From NCBI GenBank assembly GCA_965261455.1, contig OZ253453.1, positions 3,447,372 through 3,511,371 on the forward strand: a stretch of DNA of 64,000 bases, given 5' to 3'. Positions 2,404 through 12,670 of the stretch are shown here, piece by piece. The position numbers and the translations under genes are program-made. The stretch is from Dehalococcoidia bacterium (GTDB lineage: Bacteria; Chloroflexota; Dehalococcoidia; SHYB01). Under the pieces are notes generated by a model. That model searched no databases and was not told the origin of the DNA. It was given only the letters and a program-made list of their open reading frames with translations. How positions within the stretch are numbered: the stretch's first letter is position 1; each line of letters opens with the position of its first letter.

Positions 2404-4695
2404 ATGACCACCACCGCTGACCCGCCCCCCGAGTTCAAGGTCCTTGGCACGAGACCGCTCCGCCACGATGGCATGGAGAAGGTGACCGGGCAGGCCCGCT
2501 ACGGCGCCGACATTCACCCGCCGGGCCTTCTGCAGGGCAAGATTCTGCGCAGCCCGCACGCCCACGCGCGGATCAAGTCGATCGACACGAGCAAGGCCGA
2601 GGCGCTCGACGGCGTGCGCGCCGTCATCACCAACGCGGACTACCCCATCGTCAGCAATACGCCGATCGACTTGGCGGAGGTGCTGATGAACGCGCGGGTC
2701 ATGGCGGAAAACGACCTTGCCGGCAAGAAGGTGCTCTACAAGGGGCATGCCGTTGTCGCCGTGGTGGCGGTGAGCCCGCATGTCGCCGAGGAGGCGCTCG
2801 ACCTGGTCGACGTGGAGTATGAAGTCCTCGACCCGCTCATGACGGTGGACGTGGCGATGGCGCCCGGCGCGCCGCTCCTGCACGAGGATATGACGACGCA
2901 TACCCTGGCGGCGCGGTTCACCCGCGGCACGGACACCGGCGAGCGCAGCAACATCGCGTCGCGGCTGCTGTTCGAGGGGGGCGACCGTGAGAAGGCGTTC
3001 ACTGAAGCGGACGTGATCGTCGAGCGGGACTTCCGCACCAAGGCGGTGCATCAGGGCTATATCGAGCCGCACAGCTCGACGGCGTCGTGGACGCCGGACG
3101 GGCACGTCACGATCTGGACCTCGACGCAAGGGGCGTTTGGGATCCGGAGCTCGGTGGCGGCGATCCTGCGGATCCCCGAGGCGAAGATCAAGGTAGTGCC
3201 ACTGGAGATGGGCGGCGGCTTCGGAGGCAAGATTTCCAGCTATCTCGACTCCGTCGCGGCCATCGCGTCGCGCAAGACGGGGCATCCGGTGAAGTTCACC
3301 ATGACGCGCAAGGAAGTCTTCGAGGGCACGGGGCCGACTTCGGGGACGCACATCAAGGCAAAGATCGGGGCCAAGAAGGACGGCACGATCGTCGCGGCCG
3401 ATCTGTGGCTTGCCTACGAGGCCGGCGCCTATCCGGGGTCGCCCGTGGGCGCCGGCGTCATGTACGGCATGGCGCCGTACGCCATCGAGAACTTCGCTGT
3501 GGACGGGTACGATGTGGTGGTGAACAAGCCGAAGGTGGCGGCCTACCGCGCGCCGGGTACGCCGCAAGCGGCGTTCGCGATGGAGCAGGTAGTGGACCAG
3601 CTCGCCCGCGAGCTCGGCATGGACCCGATCGAGCTCCGCCTGAAGAACGTGCAGCGTGAGGGCGGGCGGCAGGTGAACGGCATCCCGTTCGGAGCGATCG
3701 GCTGCGAAGAAGTCGAGCAAGCGATGCTCGAATCGGAGCACTACAAGAGCAAACTCGAAGGGCCGAACCGGGGCCGCGGCGTGGCCATGGGGTTCTGGGG
3801 CAACGGCGGCATGCACTCGGCGGCGACCCTGGCGGTGAACGCCGAGGGCACGGTAAACATGGTCACCGGCTCCGTCGATCTCTGCGGCACCCGCGTCGCT
3901 CTGGCGATGCAGGTGGCCGAGGTGCTCGGCCTGCGCGCCGAAGACATCGTGCCCAGCGTGGGCGATACCGACTCGGTGGGCTTCACCGCCGCTTCGGGCG
4001 GGAGCCGCACGGCGTTTGCCACCGGCATCGCGGTGATCCAGGCGGCGCATAAGATCGTCGATCATCTCAAGGCCTTCGCCGGACGCATGTGGGAACTGCC
4101 GCCCGAGGAGATCGCGTTCGAGAACGGGGTCTTCGTCAATCCCAAGGACGCCGAGGAGAACAAGACCTTCAAGCAGTTGGCCATGATGGCCTTCCGCCAG
4201 GGCGCGGTGACCGCCTCGGCATCGGTGAACCCGGGCGGCGTCGGCGTCGCCTACGCGGGGCACATCGCCGACGTCGAAGTCGATCCTGAGACGGGCAAGG
4301 TCACAGTGCTGCGCTACACCACCTTCCAAGACGTGGGCCGCGCCGTCCACCCGAGCTACGTCGAGGGGCAGATGCAGGGCGGGGCGGTGCAGGGCATCGG
4401 TTGGGCGCTCAACGAGGAGTATTTCTGGACGGACGACGGCACGATGGCAAACTCGTCGTTCCTCGATTACCGGATGCCGACGAGCCTCGACCTGCCGATG
4501 ATCGAGACGCAGATCGTGGAGAAGCCGAACCCCGGCCATCCCTTCGGCCTGCGGGGCGTGGGCGAGGTGTCGATCGTGCCGCCGATGGCCGCGATCGCCA
4601 ACGCCGTGGTCGACGCGGCCGGCGCTCGCTTGACGGAGCTGCCGATGTCGCCGGGAGCGGTGCTCAAGGCGATGCAAAAGCAGCAGGGCTCATAG
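2404..4695 (+). CDS. Molybdopterin-binding large subunit of a xanthine dehydrogenase / aldehyde oxidoreductase-family enzyme
   Basis: 763 aa. At the position where form I CO dehydrogenases carry VAYRCSFR, the motif here is AAYRAPGTPQ, which argues against a true CODH. Gene order M-S-L. Confidence 0.9.
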   Translation: MTTTADPPPEFKVLGTRPLRHDGMEKVTGQARYGADIHPPGLLQGKILRSPHAHARIKSIDTSKAEALDGVRAVITNADYPIVSNTPIDLAEVLMNARVMAENDLAGKKVLYKGHAVVAVVAVSPHVAEEALDLVDVEYEVLDPLMTVDVAMAPGAPLLHEDMTTHTLAARFTRGTDTGERSNIASRLLFEGGDREKAFTEADVIVERDFRTKAVHQGYIEPHSSTASWTPDGHVTIWTSTQGAFGIRSSVAAILRIPEAKIKVVPLEMGGGFGGKISSYLDSVAAIASRKTGHPVKFTMTRKEVFEGTGPTSGTHIKAKIGAKKDGTIVAADLWLAYEAGAYPGSPVGAGVMYGMAPYAIENFAVDGYDVVVNKPKVAAYRAPGTPQAAFAMEQVVDQLARELGMDPIELRLKNVQREGGRQVNGIPFGAIGCEEVEQAMLESEHYKSKLEGPNRGRGVAMGFWGNGGMHSAATLAVNAEGTVNMVTGSVDLCGTRVALAMQVAEVLGLRAEDIVPSVGDTDSVGFTAASGGSRTAFATGIAVIQAAHKIVDHLKAFAGRMWELPPEEIAFENGVFVNPKDAEENKTFKQLAMMAFRQGAVTASASVNPGGVGVAYAGHIADVEVDPETGKVTVLRYTTFQDVGRAVHPSYVEGQMQGGAVQGIGWALNEEYFWTDDGTMANSSFLDYRMPTSLDLPMIETQIVEKPNPGHPFGLRGVGEVSIVPPMAAIANAVVDAAGARLTELPMSPGAVLKAMQKQQGS

Positions 4696-4705
4696 GACCG
4701 CCGCG

Positions 4706-4972
4706 GTGGCTATCGTCTTCATTCCGTCGCTCATGCGCGACCTTACGGGGGGCGTGGATAAGGTGACCGTCGAAGGCGCGACACTGCGCCAGGTCATCAA
4801 CGCGCTCGAAGCGGCGCACCCCGGCACAAAGGACCGGTTGGTGGATGCGGAGGGGCGTATTCAGGAGGGCCTCGCCGTTGCCATCGACGGCGAGACGACG
4901 CACCTTGGCCTCATCGAGCCCGTCAAGGAGATGTCCGAGATTCACTTCATCCCAGCCATCGGCGGGGGATAA
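4706..4972 (+). CDS. MoaD/ThiS-family small sulfur-carrier-like protein
   Basis: 88 aa ending in a -GG C-terminus, with a ubiquitin-like fold signature (…IHFIPAIGGG). Lies immediately after the large-subunit gene. Confidence 0.65.
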   Translation: MAIVFIPSLMRDLTGGVDKVTVEGATLRQVINALEAAHPGTKDRLVDAEGRIQEGLAVAIDGETTHLGLIEPVKEMSEIHFIPAIGGG

Positions 4973-4978
4973 CGACCT

Positions 4979-5938
4979 ATGCTCGGCAAGGCGCTCATGG
5001 TCGTGGCCGTCGCCGCGCTGACGCTTTCGGCGTGCTCCTCAGGCGCCGACCCGACGCCGCTTCCGCCAACGTCCCCGCCTCCATCTCCGACGGCGACACC
5101 GGAACCAATGGCGACGCCGGAACCTGCGCCCACGGCCATGTCCGAGCCGACGTCGACCCCCGTGCCAACATGGACACCCGAGCCGACGTGGACGCCCGAG
5201 CCGACGTATACGCCCGCACCCACGGCGGCGCCCGCACCCACGGCGACGGCCGCACCAACGGCGACGGCCGCGCCGGTGTCGACGGCGACGCCGCTCCCTA
5301 CCGCCCCGCCCGCGCCGACAGCGACGGCCGCGCCGGTGTCGACGGTGACGCCGCTCCCTACGTCGACGGCCACCGCGACAGTTACACCGCAGCCCACCCC
5401 CACGCCCACGGTGATGGCGCCGACGACGCAGCAGGGCTGGGCGTGCGCCGAGGATCTCGGCGGAGTCAGGTGGACGTGCGGGGGCGACATCCTGCCCGAT
5501 AGGCCCGGGGAGGAAAGCTGGTCGTGCACCGGCGCCCGAGGGTTGTTCTGGACCTGCCGGAGCGACATCGACGTCGGGGAGCGTTACACGCAAAGCTGGT
5601 CGTGCACTCACCCACCGGCGGACGAGTGGGCGTGCAGCGGCGACGTTGCGTTCGGGACGGAATTTGGCGAGAAGTGGGCCTGCACGGGGGCCCAGGGCGG
5701 CGCCGCGTGGACGTGCACCGGCGATATTGTGACCGAGACCTTCCACGACGAGACCTGGTCGTGCAGCCTTGCCGCCGGGGCCTGGTTCTGCCACGGCAAC
5801 ATCCTGCCCGAGATCGCGAGCCAGACATGGTCGTGCAGTGCCGGCGCCGGGCGCGACTCGTGGATGTGCCAGGGCGGCCTGGGAGGGTTCGAGCCGGTTG
5901 TCGGGATGCCGTTCCTGTTCTTCGACAACAGGGAGTAG
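4979..5938 (+). CDS. Secreted lipoprotein with a Pro/Thr-rich linker and twelve W-x-C-x-G mini-repeats. Function unknown
   Basis: Signal peptide with lipobox LTLSAC. About 120 aa of PT-rich linker are encoded by tandem DNA repeats. Repeats WACAED/WTCGGD/WSCTGA/WTCRSD/WSCTHP/WACSGD/WACTGA/WTCTGD/WSCSLA/WFCHGN/WSCSAG/WMCQGG follow. Confidence 0.6.
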   Translation: MLGKALMVVAVAALTLSACSSGADPTPLPPTSPPPSPTATPEPMATPEPAPTAMSEPTSTPVPTWTPEPTWTPEPTYTPAPTAAPAPTATAAPTATAAPVSTATPLPTAPPAPTATAAPVSTVTPLPTSTATATVTPQPTPTPTVMAPTTQQGWACAEDLGGVRWTCGGDILPDRPGEESWSCTGARGLFWTCRSDIDVGERYTQSWSCTHPPADEWACSGDVAFGTEFGEKWACTGAQGGAAWTCTGDIVTETFHDETWSCSLAAGAWFCHGNILPEIASQTWSCSAGAGRDSWMCQGGLGGFEPVVGMPFLFFDNRE

Positions 5939-8356: not shown

Positions 8357-9598
8357 ATGGACCGTCGCGTCGCGGTCACCGGCCTCGGCCTTGTTACGCC
8401 GCTGGGGCTCGACCTAATGTCGACGTGGCGAGCGGCCCTGGCGGGCGTCTCGGGCGTCGATACCATCGCGGGGTTCGACGCTGAGTCCTTCGCCACGCGC
8501 ATCGCCGCCGAGGTGAAGGGCTTCGACCCGCTGGCCTGCATGGAGCGCAAGGAGGCCAAGAACACCGACCGCTTCGTGCAGTTTGCCACCGCGGCGGCGC
8601 TGGAGGCGCTGGCTCACGCCGGTCTGGACGTCGAGGGCAACGCCGACGAGGTGGGGTGCATCGTGGGCAGCGGCATCGGTGGGATCGGCACGCTGTCGAA
8701 GCAGGTGACGACGTTGAACGAGCGCGGGCCGAGCCGTGTCTCGCCATTCTTAGTCCCCATGATGATCGCGGACATGGCGTCGGGGCACCTCTCGATACGT
8801 CTGGGCGCCAAGGGGCCGAACTTCTGCACGACTTCGGCCTGTTCGAGCGGGGCCGACGCCATCGGCGTCTCGGCGGAGATGATCCGGCGAGGCGAGGCGA
8901 CGGCCATGATCACCGGCGGCGCCGAGGCCTGCGTGGTCCCCATCGGACTCGCCGGTTTCTCTTCCGCCGGCGCGCTCTCCAAACGCAACGATGAGCCGAC
9001 CAAGGCCTCCCGGCCGTTCGACGCCGACCGCGACGGGTTCATCCTGGGCGAGGGCTCGGGGATCTTGATTCTCGAAGAGATGGAGCACGCCAAGGCGCGG
9101 GGCGCCACGGTGCTCGCCGAAATGGCGAGCTACGCGGCCACCGCCGACGCGCATCACATCACGCAGCCCGCGGAGCGCGCCGAGGGCGCGGCGCGGGCGA
9201 TGCGCCACGCCCTGAAGAAGGCCGGACTCGGCGTCGACGAGATCGACTACATCAACGCGCACGGCACCTCGACGCCGCTTAACGACAAGTTCGAGACCAT
9301 GGCGATCCACGACGTCTTCGGCGACGAGGCGCCCAAAATCCCGATCAGCTCGACGAAGTCGATGACGGGGCACCTGATCGGTGCCGCGGGAGCGGTCGAG
9401 GCCGCCTTCTCGGTGCTGGCGATCCGGGACGGCGTCGTCCCGCCGACGATCAACCTCGAGACGCCCGACCCCGACTGCGATCTGGACTACACGCCGCACA
9501 TCCCCAAGCGCGGGCCGGTGCGCGCGGTGCTCTCGAACTCGCTGGGCTTTGGCGGCCACAACAGCTGCCTTGTCTTCCGCCGCTACGAGGGGTCGTGA
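8357..9598 (+). CDS. fabF: Beta-ketoacyl-ACP synthase II
   Basis: MDRRVAVTGLGLVTPLG… with active-site Cys in …TACSSGADAIG and His motifs NAHGTSTPLND / SMTGHLIGAAG. Confidence 0.9.
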   Translation: MDRRVAVTGLGLVTPLGLDLMSTWRAALAGVSGVDTIAGFDAESFATRIAAEVKGFDPLACMERKEAKNTDRFVQFATAAALEALAHAGLDVEGNADEVGCIVGSGIGGIGTLSKQVTTLNERGPSRVSPFLVPMMIADMASGHLSIRLGAKGPNFCTTSACSSGADAIGVSAEMIRRGEATAMITGGAEACVVPIGLAGFSSAGALSKRNDEPTKASRPFDADRDGFILGEGSGILILEEMEHAKARGATVLAEMASYAATADAHHITQPAERAEGAARAMRHALKKAGLGVDEIDYINAHGTSTPLNDKFETMAIHDVFGDEAPKIPISSTKSMTGHLIGAAGAVEAAFSVLAIRDGVVPPTINLETPDPDCDLDYTPHIPKRGPVRAVLSNSLGFGGHNSCLVFRRYEGS

Positions 9599-11353: not shown

Positions 11354-12670
11354 TCATTCTTCGACGTGCAGGCCGATCTTCTCCAGGTCGCCGTTGATCT
11401 CTTCGATATTGGCGTAGGGGCCGATCTTCGTCGCGACCACGACGCCGTCGGCGTCGATGACGTAGGTCGAGGGGACGCCGAAGAGGCCATAGCCTTGGTC
11501 CGCGATCATGCGGCCGTCGTCGATGACGACGTTGAGGGCAAGGCCGATCTCGTCAAAGAAGGCGGTGACAGCCTCGCCGGTCTCGTCGAGATCGACGGCG
11601 AGGAGGGTGAGTTCGTCGCCGAGGGTGTCGTGGACTCTCTGTAAGTCCGGCATTTCGGCGCGGCAGGGCCCGCACCAGGTGGCCCAGAAGTTGACGATGA
11701 CGGGCTGACCGCGGAGTTCGGCGAGGCTGAACTCCTCGCCGTCGTCGGAGGTGAAGCGGAAGTTGGGGGCGAGCTTGCCGGGCACGGCGCCGGCCTCGCC
11801 GCCGGGGGTGTCGGCGAGCCCGAGGGACTGGTAGATGGTGAAGCCCTCGCTCGCGTCTAAGGGCCGCTCCACGGCCGGGGGAGCGCTCTCTAGGAAGGAG
11901 AAGTATTCGTTGAGCTTGGTCAGCTGGTTGAAGAAGATGAGGAGGCCGATGAGCACCATCAGGATGCCGCTGGCGACGGTGATCGCGGGGAGGTAGCGGT
12001 TCACCTTCTTGAAGATAGGCGTGATCTGGCCCAGTGCCGCACCGGTGATGAGGAACGGGATGCTGAGGCCGGCGGTGTAGAAGGCAAGCAGGATGGTGGC
12101 CTGGCCCGCGGCGCTCCAGGCGTTTAGGGAGTTGCCGGCCTCGTTGAAGGCGAGGGTGAGGATCGCGCCGAGGAGGGGGGTAATGCACGGCGTCCAGCCG
12201 ACGCCGAACGCGCCGCCGACGATGGTCGAGCGCCAGTACGAGGGTGGGGCGTCCTCGCCGCCGATGTGGATGCGGCGTTCGCGGAAGTAGATTCCGTCGA
12301 GCCAGTTGGTAAGCGGTCCCAGCACGGTCCGCAGCACCGGGAGCTTGAATACCCCCGCCATGTAGAGGCCCACGGCTATGAGCAGGGCGCCGGCGATGCG
12401 CGCGATCAGGTCGCCATAGCCGCCGGCGGTCCCTCCGAGGACGCCGACGGTCGCGCCGAGAATGATGAATGGCACGGAAAAGCCGATGACGAAGCCGAGG
12501 CTGTGGAGGAACGTCGTCCGCCCGCCCTGGAGTTGTCCGTCCTTGATGGAGACGCCGGAGAGATGGCCCAGGAAGATCGGAACGAGCGGCAGGACGCACG
12601 GGGAGACGAAGGAGGCGATTCCCCCGACGAAGGCTACGATCAGGGCGACGAGTGAGAGGTCTTCGATCAT
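11354..12670 (-). CDS. Fusion of a cytochrome c biogenesis CcdA/DsbD-like membrane domain with a C-terminal TlpA/ResA-type thioredoxin
   Basis: N-terminal TM domain carries the Cys pair SPCVLPLVP. C-terminal domain carries WATWCGPCRAEMP (CxxC). Confidence 0.8.
   Translation of the reverse strand: MIEDLSLVALIVAFVGGIASFVSPCVLPLVPIFLGHLSGVSIKDGQLQGGRTTFLHSLGFVIGFSVPFIILGATVGVLGGTAGGYGDLIARIAGALLIAVGLYMAGVFKLPVLRTVLGPLTNWLDGIYFRERRIHIGGEDAPPSYWRSTIVGGAFGVGWTPCITPLLGAILTLAFNEAGNSLNAWSAAGQATILLAFYTAGLSIPFLITGAALGQITPIFKKVNRYLPAITVASGILMVLIGLLIFFNQLTKLNEYFSFLESAPPAVERPLDASEGFTIYQSLGLADTPGGEAGAVPGKLAPNFRFTSDDGEEFSLAELRGQPVIVNFWATWCGPCRAEMPDLQRVHDTLGDELTLLAVDLDETGEAVTAFFDEIGLALNVVIDDGRMIADQGYGLFGVPSTYVIDADGVVVATKIGPYANIEEINGDLEKIGLHVEE

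Follow-up and report, generated by a model that had tools for sequence, protein, structure and literature searches.

Tandem tryptophan- and cysteine-containing repeats in a predicted stalked lipoprotein encoded next to a molybdenum hydroxylase operon of a Dehalococcoidia bacterium

Background

The locus considered here raises the question of what kind of protein is encoded directly downstream of a molybdenum (Mo) hydroxylase operon in a Dehalococcoidia bacterium, and whether this protein works together with the enzyme. The window analysed is a stretch of 64,000 nucleotides of contig OZ253453.1 (GenBank assembly GCA_965261455.1, positions 3,447,372 to 3,511,371 of the forward strand). The open reading frame (ORF) list and its translation place an ORF of 319 codons, closed by a TAG stop, at 4979..5938 of the (+) strand. 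The 319-residue product is laid out as a signal peptide with a lipobox, a Pro/Thr/Ala linker of 133 residues and a Trp/Cys domain of 167 residues. A previous reading, made by a model from the letters alone and referred to here as the sequence-only reading, had described this domain as a series of twelve mini-repeats of 12-14 residues and had proposed a role in metal or cofactor handling beside the operon. In the current analysis the domain has been found to consist of six tandem units of a larger repeat, shared by a very rare family of proteins that are tethered outside the cell. The architecture of the protein is much more secure than its function.

The repeat unit of the Trp/Cys domain

The 167-residue domain is acidic (pI 4.3) and has high contents of Trp (7.2%), Cys (7.2%) and Gly (15%). 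Twelve W-x-C motifs are present between residues 154 and 297; apart from the lipobox Cys they account for every Cys residue (12), and of the 14 Trp residues they contain 12. A chance origin is excluded, since none of 100,000 shuffles of the domain gave twelve W-x-C motifs, the shuffle maximum being 6. The distances from one Trp to the next alternate between 9-11 and 15-16 residues, so that two motifs together make up one unit of about 26 residues, present in six copies. The true repeat comprises six such units with two Cys each, of the form x-E-x-W-x-C-x(8-10)-C-x-G-[DN]-[IV]-D-x(5-7). The twelve motif strings listed in the sequence-only reading are all correct and are not due to chance, but the period of 12-14 residues that it assigned to them has to be replaced by the double unit. 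The pattern W-[SAT]-C-x-G given with them has to be relaxed: two of the motifs have F or M in the middle, Gly is present at +2 after the Cys in only 7 of the 12, and the second Trp of the unit varies within the family, where F, I, V, S and further residues stand in its place.

An alignment of 42 units has W4, C6 and C16 as invariant positions and G18 conserved in more than 90%, with the consensus x-E-x-W-x-C-x5-G-x-W-x-C-S-G-D-I-D-x5. The features fixed across the family are the first Trp, both Cys residues and the Gly following the second Cys. A hidden Markov model (HMM) of the unit, derived from 37 units of distant members only and hence non-circular, identifies exactly six units in the window protein with 63.8 bits, as compared with at most 7.9 bits in 200 shuffled controls. 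The units and the C-terminal tail are listed below with the strands predicted by AlphaFold2 (AF2), in model numbering.

5429..5509 (+): unit 1, residues 151-177, QQGWACAEDLGGVRWTCGGDILPDRPG, Cys156 and Cys167; unit HMM 154-171, 14.1 bits; AF2 strands 5-9 and 15-20
5510..5587 (+): unit 2, residues 178-203, EESWSCTGARGLFWTCRSDIDVGERY, Cys183 and Cys193; unit HMM 179-198, 14.9 bits; AF2 strands 31-37 and 41-47
5588..5665 (+): unit 3, residues 204-229, TQSWSCTHPPADEWACSGDVAFGTEF, Cys209 and Cys219; unit HMM 206-223, 17.0 bits; AF2 strands 56-61 and 67-73
5666..5746 (+): unit 4, residues 230-256, GEKWACTGAQGGAAWTCTGDIVTETFH, Cys235 and Cys246; unit HMM 231-250, 16.4 bits; AF2 strands 82-88 and 94-100
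5747..5818 (+): unit 5, residues 257-280, DETWSCSLAAGAWFCHGNILPEIA, Cys262 and Cys271; unit HMM 257-275, 25.2 bits; AF2 strands 109-116 and 119-124
5819..5878 (+): unit 6, residues 281-300, SQTWSCSAGAGRDSWMCQGG, Cys286 and Cys297; weak unit HMM match 283-299, 5.1 bits; AF2 strands 133-139 and 146-150
5879..5935 (+): hydrophobic Pro-containing C-terminal tail, residues 301-319, LGGFEPVVGMPFLFFDNRE, recognised by conservation; AF2 low-confidence helix 157-165

Unit 6 is truncated and has the C-terminal tail in place of the acidic loop. Orthologs have been identified in five metagenome-assembled genomes (MAGs) of Dehalococcoidia, with 74-95% identity over the domain. All twelve W-x-C motifs and the lipobox are retained in each of the five. 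The acidic loops between the hairpins, the Trp/Cys framework and the tail are conserved among these orthologs; the hairpin turns vary, and unit 1 is the most variable of the units.

The tail (GGFEPVVGMPFLFFDNRE) is near-invariant among the orthologs, the sole change being that of N317 to D. Its family consensus, G-x-L-x-P-[LIV]-[VM]-x-P-[VI], is found in all complete members, and alignment position P158 is invariant across the family. The tail may serve as a cap or a plug. A C-terminal sorting signal (PEP-CTERM, PGF-CTERM or LPXTG) was looked for, and no NCBIfam sorting-signal model matched at E up to 1. A signal of the sortase or exosortase type, which would need a signature motif, a transmembrane helix of about 20 residues and a basic cluster in that order, was also considered and rejected: hydrophobic residues in the tail number just 10-13 or so, Pro is present among them, and the C-terminal end, DNRE, is acidic.

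The reading frame and the length of the product

The gene considered above and the products called by metagenome pipelines over the same DNA are as follows.

4979..5938 (+): lipoprotein gene, complete; ORF list, translation and a conserved long ORF in the orthologous loci L006-L010
4942-5409 (-) and 5414-5938 (+): split products of gene callers, in window coordinates, as called by metagenome pipelines in L001-L005

A possible Shine-Dalgarno sequence, GGGGGA, is situated 9 nt 5' of the start, within the final codons of the preceding ThiS-like gene. Gene callers on five assemblies have reported a product of 174 residues starting from the internal Met146 together with an antisense ORF of 155 residues over the linker. 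Members of the public cluster are only 131-174 residues long, and the signal peptide and lipobox are missing from public protein records. These calls would be explained if the long ORF were an artefact of high GC content, the true product being the 174-residue protein and the linker belonging to an antisense gene. The linker itself adds to the case against the long form, since its ratio of nonsynonymous to synonymous substitution rates (dN/dS) is about 0.4 for the sense frame and for the mirrored, wobble-sharing antisense frame alike and cannot separate the two.

The remaining evidence points the other way. The ORF that begins with the signal peptide and lipobox is open in frame through a linker of variable length in all six genomes; in the five orthologs (L006-L010) it is open from a conserved start (ATG or GTG), and the length differences among their linkers are always multiples of three nucleotides. 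No Met is aligned with Met146 in the divergent orthologs L007-L010 (…PTVAGPAPALGW, …PTAAAPPPALGW), where one has to go about 20-25 codons upstream, into the linker, to reach the nearest in-frame Met. The antisense frames are open throughout because the GC content is 70-75%. Distant relatives likewise have signal peptide, linker and domain in a single ORF, and a cytoplasmic location would be hard to understand for a domain that has 12 Cys residues and only exported relatives. Sense-frame dN/dS is 0.10-0.19 over the domain and 0.37-0.44 over the linker, in comparison with 0.05-0.23 for neighbouring genes. The domain is under purifying selection, and there the sense frame clearly beats the antisense frame. 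On the absence of Met146 in L007-L010, the GC-driven openness of the antisense frames and the single-ORF layout of the relatives, the 174-residue call is judged to be a miscall and the long form to be the real gene, and we regard the artefact explanation as hardly credible.

Signal peptide, lipobox and linker

The N-terminal part of the protein comprises the following elements.

4979..5035 (+): type II signal peptide, MLGKALMVVAVAALTLSA followed by the lipobox C, read from the sequence
5036..5434 (+): Pro/Thr/Ala linker or stalk, residues 20-152, by composition
5168..5218 (+): three T-[W/Y]-T-P-E-P hexapeptides (TWTPEPTWTPEPTYTP), residues 64-80, encoded by an 18-nt tandem repeat
5222..5371 (+): duplication of 60-nt period, about 2.5 copies, in the linker, detected by Tandem Repeats Finder (TRF)

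The signal peptide has an n-region with Lys, a hydrophobic core and the lipobox L-S-A-C (MLGKALMVVAVAALT-L-S-A-C19), and agrees with the general form of lipoprotein signals (positive n-region, hydrophobic core, [LVI][ASTVI][GAS]C). The N-terminal sequence MLGKALMVVAVAALTLSAC covers the signal peptide including the lipobox, with Cys19 as the predicted lipidated residue. The lipobox reads LTLSAC, LTVSAC or LTVAAC in the orthologs, and six distant relatives have lipoboxes of the kinds LLGC, TVGC, LSGC, IAGC, VAC or FAGC. Lipoprotein models of NCBIfam give weak N-terminal matches, far below the cut-off. The suggestion of a lipoprotein with the lipobox LTLSAC is in accord with its conservation in all orthologs and in most distant relatives, and the protein is probably anchored to lipid at Cys19.

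Pro (29%), Thr (27%) and Ala (18%) dominate the linker, from which Lys and Arg are absent; its maximum length, at full extension, is about 41 nm. Its DNA has a GC content of 75% and a negative GC skew. A tandem repeat of period 18 was detected by TRF at 5142-5216. Each of the five orthologs retains the aromatic hexapeptides T-[W/Y]-T-P-E-P in a linker that otherwise diverges, and these peptides may represent a functional element of the stalk. The repetitive linker DNA had been described earlier as near-identical 45-nt repeats. The sequence quoted for it is present, in two exact copies of 41 nt (5261-5301 and 5321-5361; two matches to the pattern as against none expected), but what has been found is the duplication of 60-nt period with 18-nt sub-repeats upstream and not a 45-nt tandem array.

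Occurrence of the family and modes of tethering

A word-indexed search retrieved only the gene's own cluster. An exhaustive phmmer search of 1.84 billion representatives resulted in 13 matches, among which ten are distant relatives at 29-39% identity; the listed relatives have E-values between 3.7e-12 and 9e-4. A set of 5.8 billion clusters, searched with a profile of the family, yielded 11 clusters. None of the clusters has a name beyond 'hypothetical protein' in any source. One of the matches, P0002, is a fragment of 69 residues that is 90% identical to the query and belongs to the gene's own clade. Two others, P0009 and P0013, were rejected as spurious: neither shows the Cys pattern, and each owes an inflated score to repeats of its own. 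A tblastn search of plasmids and phages found no relatives.

The family as defined here includes P0003-P0008, P0010-P0012 and P0014-P0019. Its members are characterised by at least five tandem units of 24-27 residues (W-x-C, 4-12 residues, C-x-G), the C-terminal tail and an N-terminal extracellular tether. Either five or six units are found in individual members; the window protein has six, together with the tail G-x-L-x-P-[LIV]-[VM]-x-P and an N-terminal tether. No Pfam family matches the window protein at E up to 1 and no NCBIfam model matches the repeat. For the models CW_binding_1 (PF01473), MORN (PF02493), TSP_1 and TSP_3 there is no match at E up to 1 in the window protein, nor any match within the repeats of 10 relatives. 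When 9-10 relatives were scanned with Pfam and NCBIfam, nothing was assigned to the repeat region, and only SLH and one weak FG-GAP match appeared elsewhere. Against the PDB, neither the single sequence nor profiles of the domain and of two units gave a significant match, the best being 3jx8 (E 0.71). The view that the repeat matches no named family is upheld by these searches, and no description of such a repeat has been found in the literature.

Three kinds of tether precede the repeat domain. A lipoprotein signal with a low-complexity linker is present in P0005, P0007, P0008, P0011, P0012 and P0015. SLH domains with a Ser/Thr linker are found in P0003, P0006 and P0010 (Pfam SLH, E 5e-10 to 8e-19). 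FG-GAP-like repeats are found in P0004, P0016 and the protein encoded at L014. The association of one domain with three distinct tethers argues for an extracytoplasmic, surface-displayed module; extracellular tethering is family-wide and the family is very rare. The SLH-like repeats of P0003, P0006 and P0010 each have a conserved Cys pair (G-C-N-P-P-x-N-x-R-[YF]-C-P), unusual for SLH, which suggests that these three are disulfide-rich exoproteins throughout.

Predicted structure and disulfides

Structure prediction by AF2 with 12 sequences resulted in a predicted local distance difference test (pLDDT) score of 55.7. With 19 sequences the score is 64.7, with a predicted template modelling score (pTM) of 0.60, and all five models are at 59-65. 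The two runs are independent and give the same set of 12 strands, with one hairpin per unit and one Cys on each strand, and a short helix of low confidence over the tail. The secondary structure of one hairpin per unit is reasonably supported by these models. A beta-trefoil, which also has six hairpins, was considered and rejected: there is no alternation of three times two units, members with 5 units exist, and no trefoil is among the Foldseek matches.

The number of Cys residues in the domain is even in all 13 complete members examined, with two per unit. Within a unit the two Cys are separated by 4 to 12 residues, and the step from the second Cys to the first Cys of the next unit stays at about 14-15, as expected from a hairpin turn of variable length. 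In P0018 and P0019 both Cys residues of one unit are lost together (WSV...FGDGDID and WDV...TGIGDIE). One disulfide per unit is therefore likely from the model and the Cys pairing, connecting residues 156-167, 183-193, 209-219, 235-246, 262-271 and 286-297. The sequence-only reading had left a choice between disulfide-stapled and metal-binding hairpins. The stapled hairpin appears as the best structural reading in view of the AF2 models, the even Cys counts and the paired loss of Cys, and neither CxxC nor His/Cys metal motifs are present for the other.

A DsbD/CcdA-type membrane domain fused to a thioredoxin/TlpA-like domain is encoded in the window at 11354-12670 (-), about 5.4 kb downstream. 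This fusion, a thiol-redox protein acting outside the cytoplasm, could be relevant to the folding of Cys-rich exported proteins, and is probably only collinear with the lipoprotein gene.

Comparison with known repeat and barrel proteins

In architecture, and not in family, the protein resembles the stalked bacterial lipoproteins, with a type II signal peptide, a lipobox Cys, a fast-evolving Pro/Thr/Ala linker and a globular domain under purifying selection. It differs from them in that its displayed domain matches no named family. The choline- and cell-wall-binding repeats (CW_binding_1, 20-23 residues) and the MORN repeats are similar in having a unit of a hairpin and a loop, with conserved aromatic and Gly residues, in 5-6 or more tandem copies. 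The CW repeats are located at the surface and bind ligands between hairpins, and viral proteins containing MORN repeats are among the non-significant Foldseek matches. Unlike the window repeat, both families lack the invariant Cys pair. Their units are of 20-23 residues whereas those of the window protein are of 24-27 (mostly 26), and the structural similarity is not significant.

The top Foldseek matches are the OAAH lectins (7umj, 4fbr and 4gu8), avidins, nitrobindin and FABPs, which, like the model, are all-beta meanders (8-12 strands); internal sequence repeats are a further shared feature in the case of the OAAH lectins. These barrel binders have neither a disulfide per hairpin nor a periodicity of 26 residues, and their similarity does not go beyond E >=0.07, a template modelling (TM) score <=0.46 and an identity <=14%. 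Among Cys-rich repeats, the Tenebrio antifreeze beta-helix is made up of 12-residue TCT coils, and the thrombospondin type 1 motif is WSxCSxxCG. The Tenebrio antifreeze protein, TSR1 and TSP3 have in common with the window domain short repeats with regular Cys residues, TSR1 having a Trp next to Cys and TSP3 acidic D-x-D loops. Their motifs and spacings are different, and AF2 gives hairpins and not a coil helix for the window domain. The beta-helical lipoprotein 3jx8, mentioned above, is a weak profile match that is not significant.

The molybdenum hydroxylase neighbourhood

The genes upstream of the lipoprotein gene are listed below.

937-1755: FAD subunit (CoxM-like)
1762-2241: 2Fe-2S subunit (CoxS-like)
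2404-4695 (+): Mo-binding subunit (CoxL-like)
4706-4972 (+): ThiS/MoaD/SAMP-like protein of 88 residues, ending in I-G-G-G

The location directly downstream of genes of the coxM, coxS and coxL type and a ThiS/MoaD-like gene has been confirmed, the lipoprotein start being 6 nt past the ThiS-like stop. The large subunit has the loop AYRAPG (AYRAPGTPQ), which matches the CO dehydrogenase signature of neither form I (AYxCSFR) nor form II (AYRGAGR). 'Mo hydroxylase' is the correct label because both of these signatures are missing from the large subunit. Judged from this loop, the operon encodes a hydroxylase of the xanthine dehydrogenase (XDH) family and not a CO dehydrogenase, and the label 'cox' is nominal.

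The ThiS/MoaD-fold protein appears as a ubiquitin-like small modifier or sulfur carrier within the Mo hydroxylase operon; its best NCBIfam matches are SAMP1 and archaeal-type MoaD, all below the cut-off. The gap of 162 nt between coxS and coxL (2242-2403, +) is GC-rich and has several hairpins, with a folding z-score of only -1.4. No Rfam family matches this gap, and the Rfam scan and folding of the neighbourhood gave nothing. Some strains, that of the window among them, have a DUF4411 gene (278-760, +) between coxM and the alanyl-tRNA synthetase gene and others do not, and in L004 and L005 an M78 peptidase/HTH gene is found beside it (L001-L003 and L006-L010 being compared). This region looks like a strain-variable insertion of the toxin-antitoxin type.

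The proximity of the two raises the possibility that the lipoprotein is a partner of the upstream operon, its twelve thiols capturing a metal (Mo, W or Cu) or a cofactor on the outside of the cell, or relaying electrons or thiols. A junction of 6 nt with no terminator predicted in it favours such a partnership, as does the same gene order at all five orthologous loci, and twelve regularly spaced Cys residues could in principle bind metals. On the other hand, neither a Tat nor a Sec signal is present on CoxM, CoxS or CoxL, which are therefore probably cytoplasmic. Judged from sequence, the enzyme and the lipoprotein would then probably be on opposite sides of the membrane and share no compartment. 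The synteny of the close relatives is uninformative because the whole region is collinear over 16 kb, with neighbours that are 80-99% identical.

Usable context is available for three distant members (L011, L012 and L014), none of which has Mo hydroxylase or MoaD neighbours. The neighbouring genes are unrelated: an MFS transporter, an Hcp-like gene and a thiamine pyrophosphate (TPP) enzyme in L011, an amidohydrolase and an FAA hydrolase in L012, and adenylate cyclase, FIST, RDD and GNAT genes in L014. The association of the family with XDH-family operons is seen only in one close clade. The lipoprotein also has no metal motifs, and the strict pairing of Cys per hairpin, with the paired loss in P0018 and P0019, argues for disulfides rather than metal sites. 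Its dN is 0.12-0.14 as against 0.04-0.05 for CoxL, about 3 times higher and atypical of a tightly co-adapted subunit. The proposal of a cell-surface partner in metal or cofactor handling is unsupported by these observations, and among the loci compared the operon association does not extend beyond collinear close relatives. A partnership of this kind is very unlikely in our estimate.

In L011 a region matching T6SS_HCP of Pfam (Hcp-like) is encoded at 8767-9384 (+), directly downstream of the distant member P0008.

Proposed function and alternatives

We propose that the window protein is a surface-displayed binding module that is independent of the cytoplasmic Mo hydroxylase, a proposal made by analogy and to which we would give about an even chance. 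Following export, the protein would be anchored by lipid at Cys19 on the outer face of the cytoplasmic membrane of this member of the Chloroflexota, and the stalk of 133 residues would keep the acidic domain off the membrane. Each unit would form one beta-hairpin, with E-x-W-x-C as the first strand and x-x-C-x-G-[DN]-[IV] as the second, and the two Cys facing each other across it would form a disulfide, six in total, round each of which the flanking Trp residues probably pack. The six hairpins would make up a rigid, Trp-rich array, joined as an up-and-down sheet of 12 strands that may close into a barrel, the conserved acidic loops linking the hairpins and the conserved hydrophobic tail ending the protein. 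The functional surface would be on the loop face or in the lumen, the opposite face being free to drift; it is placed there because the loops, the Trp/Cys framework and the tail are the conserved parts and the turns and unit 1 the variable ones. Candidate ligands are a glycan, an envelope polymer or a small molecule, bound on the loop face or in a barrel lumen.

Several points weigh against this proposal. The binding role is drawn from a likeness to tethered domains of aromatic beta-hairpin repeats, with no characterised homolog in the family. The AF2 model is of only moderate confidence, with no residue at pLDDT 90, and the tertiary packing may be an open sheet, a barrel or a solenoid. Foldseek finds no significant fold neighbour (best E 0.07 in the PDB and 0.09 in BFVD, TM <=0.46); for the barrel binders, a significant superposition was taken to require TM above 0.5 and E below 1e-3. 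Disulfides can form only if the exterior is oxidising or a Dsb or VKOR system is at hand. Co-transcription with the Mo hydroxylase operon is likely, as follows from the 6-nt gap and the absence of a predicted terminator, and a functional link to the enzyme in this lineage, while unsupported, has to be kept in view.

The packing of the hairpins is also where a different function would enter. A soluble beta-barrel of 12 strands, similar to lipocalins, FABPs, avidins or nitrobindin, might sequester a small hydrophobic molecule or a cofactor at the surface, with the tail closing it off as a lid or plug. Bacteria have lipid-anchored binders of the barrel type, such as the lipocalin Blc. The Foldseek matches of highest probability are meander barrels (nitrobindin 0.75, FABP5 and P2 0.6-0.69, avidins and OAAH lectins), and the conserved hydrophobic tail is consistent with a plugged barrel. 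As these matches are all non-significant and the model is of moderate confidence, as no Pfam sequence relation to the calycins is found, and as a variation between 5 and 6 units is easier to reconcile with an open sheet or a solenoid than with a fixed barrel (barrels of 10 and of 12 strands both being possible), we consider this unlikely.

Slightly less likely again is a structural role in the envelope, in which a rigid module stabilised by disulfides, and possibly by Ca2+ bound to the G-D-I-D-x-x-D...E loops, forms part of or docks onto the S-layer or the cell wall. The relatives anchored by SLH domains, the low pI of the domain and the acidic family loop C-S-G-[DN]-[IV]-D-x-x-D...E-x-W are in keeping with such a role, and the acidic loops are the best-conserved part among the orthologs. 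In the window protein the loop Asp residues are mostly replaced (GDILPD, GDVAFG, GDIVTE and GNILPE), so that a canonical Ca2+ site is not conserved. No Ca2+-binding repeat model of Pfam or NCBIfam matches, and the family is far too rare for a general component of the envelope.

An elaborate combination has a lower standing than the simple operon partnership discussed above and would be a long shot. It takes the array of stapled hairpins as a new fold class, closed as a 12-stranded barrel plugged by the tail and recruited into the Mo hydroxylase/ThiS-SAMP operon as an extracytoplasmic capture or redox module. If this were true, the recruited module could bind a substrate, a metal or a cofactor for the cytoplasmic enzyme, and the adjacency to the operon would be functional. 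The surface-displayed binding module that acts independently of the enzyme is the reading we prefer.

Implications

The present evidence on the lipoprotein has no bearing on the function of the molybdenum enzyme. Current metagenome gene callers systematically mis-annotate the gene, cutting it to 131-174 residues and placing an antisense ORF over the linker. Surface-tethered repeat beta-proteins on a Pro/Thr stalk are a familiar kind of protein in general; what is new is the repeat, a candidate for registration as a new domain family. It represents a compact, very rare and unnamed extracellular unit with, as predicted, one Trp-flanked disulfide per hairpin of 26 residues. Structure determination of the domain should be tractable, and the domain, with about 170 residues and six predicted disulfides, would make an attractive minimal scaffold. 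For the biology of Dehalococcoidia, the protein is one more fast-evolving surface protein among the candidate adhesion or uptake factors.

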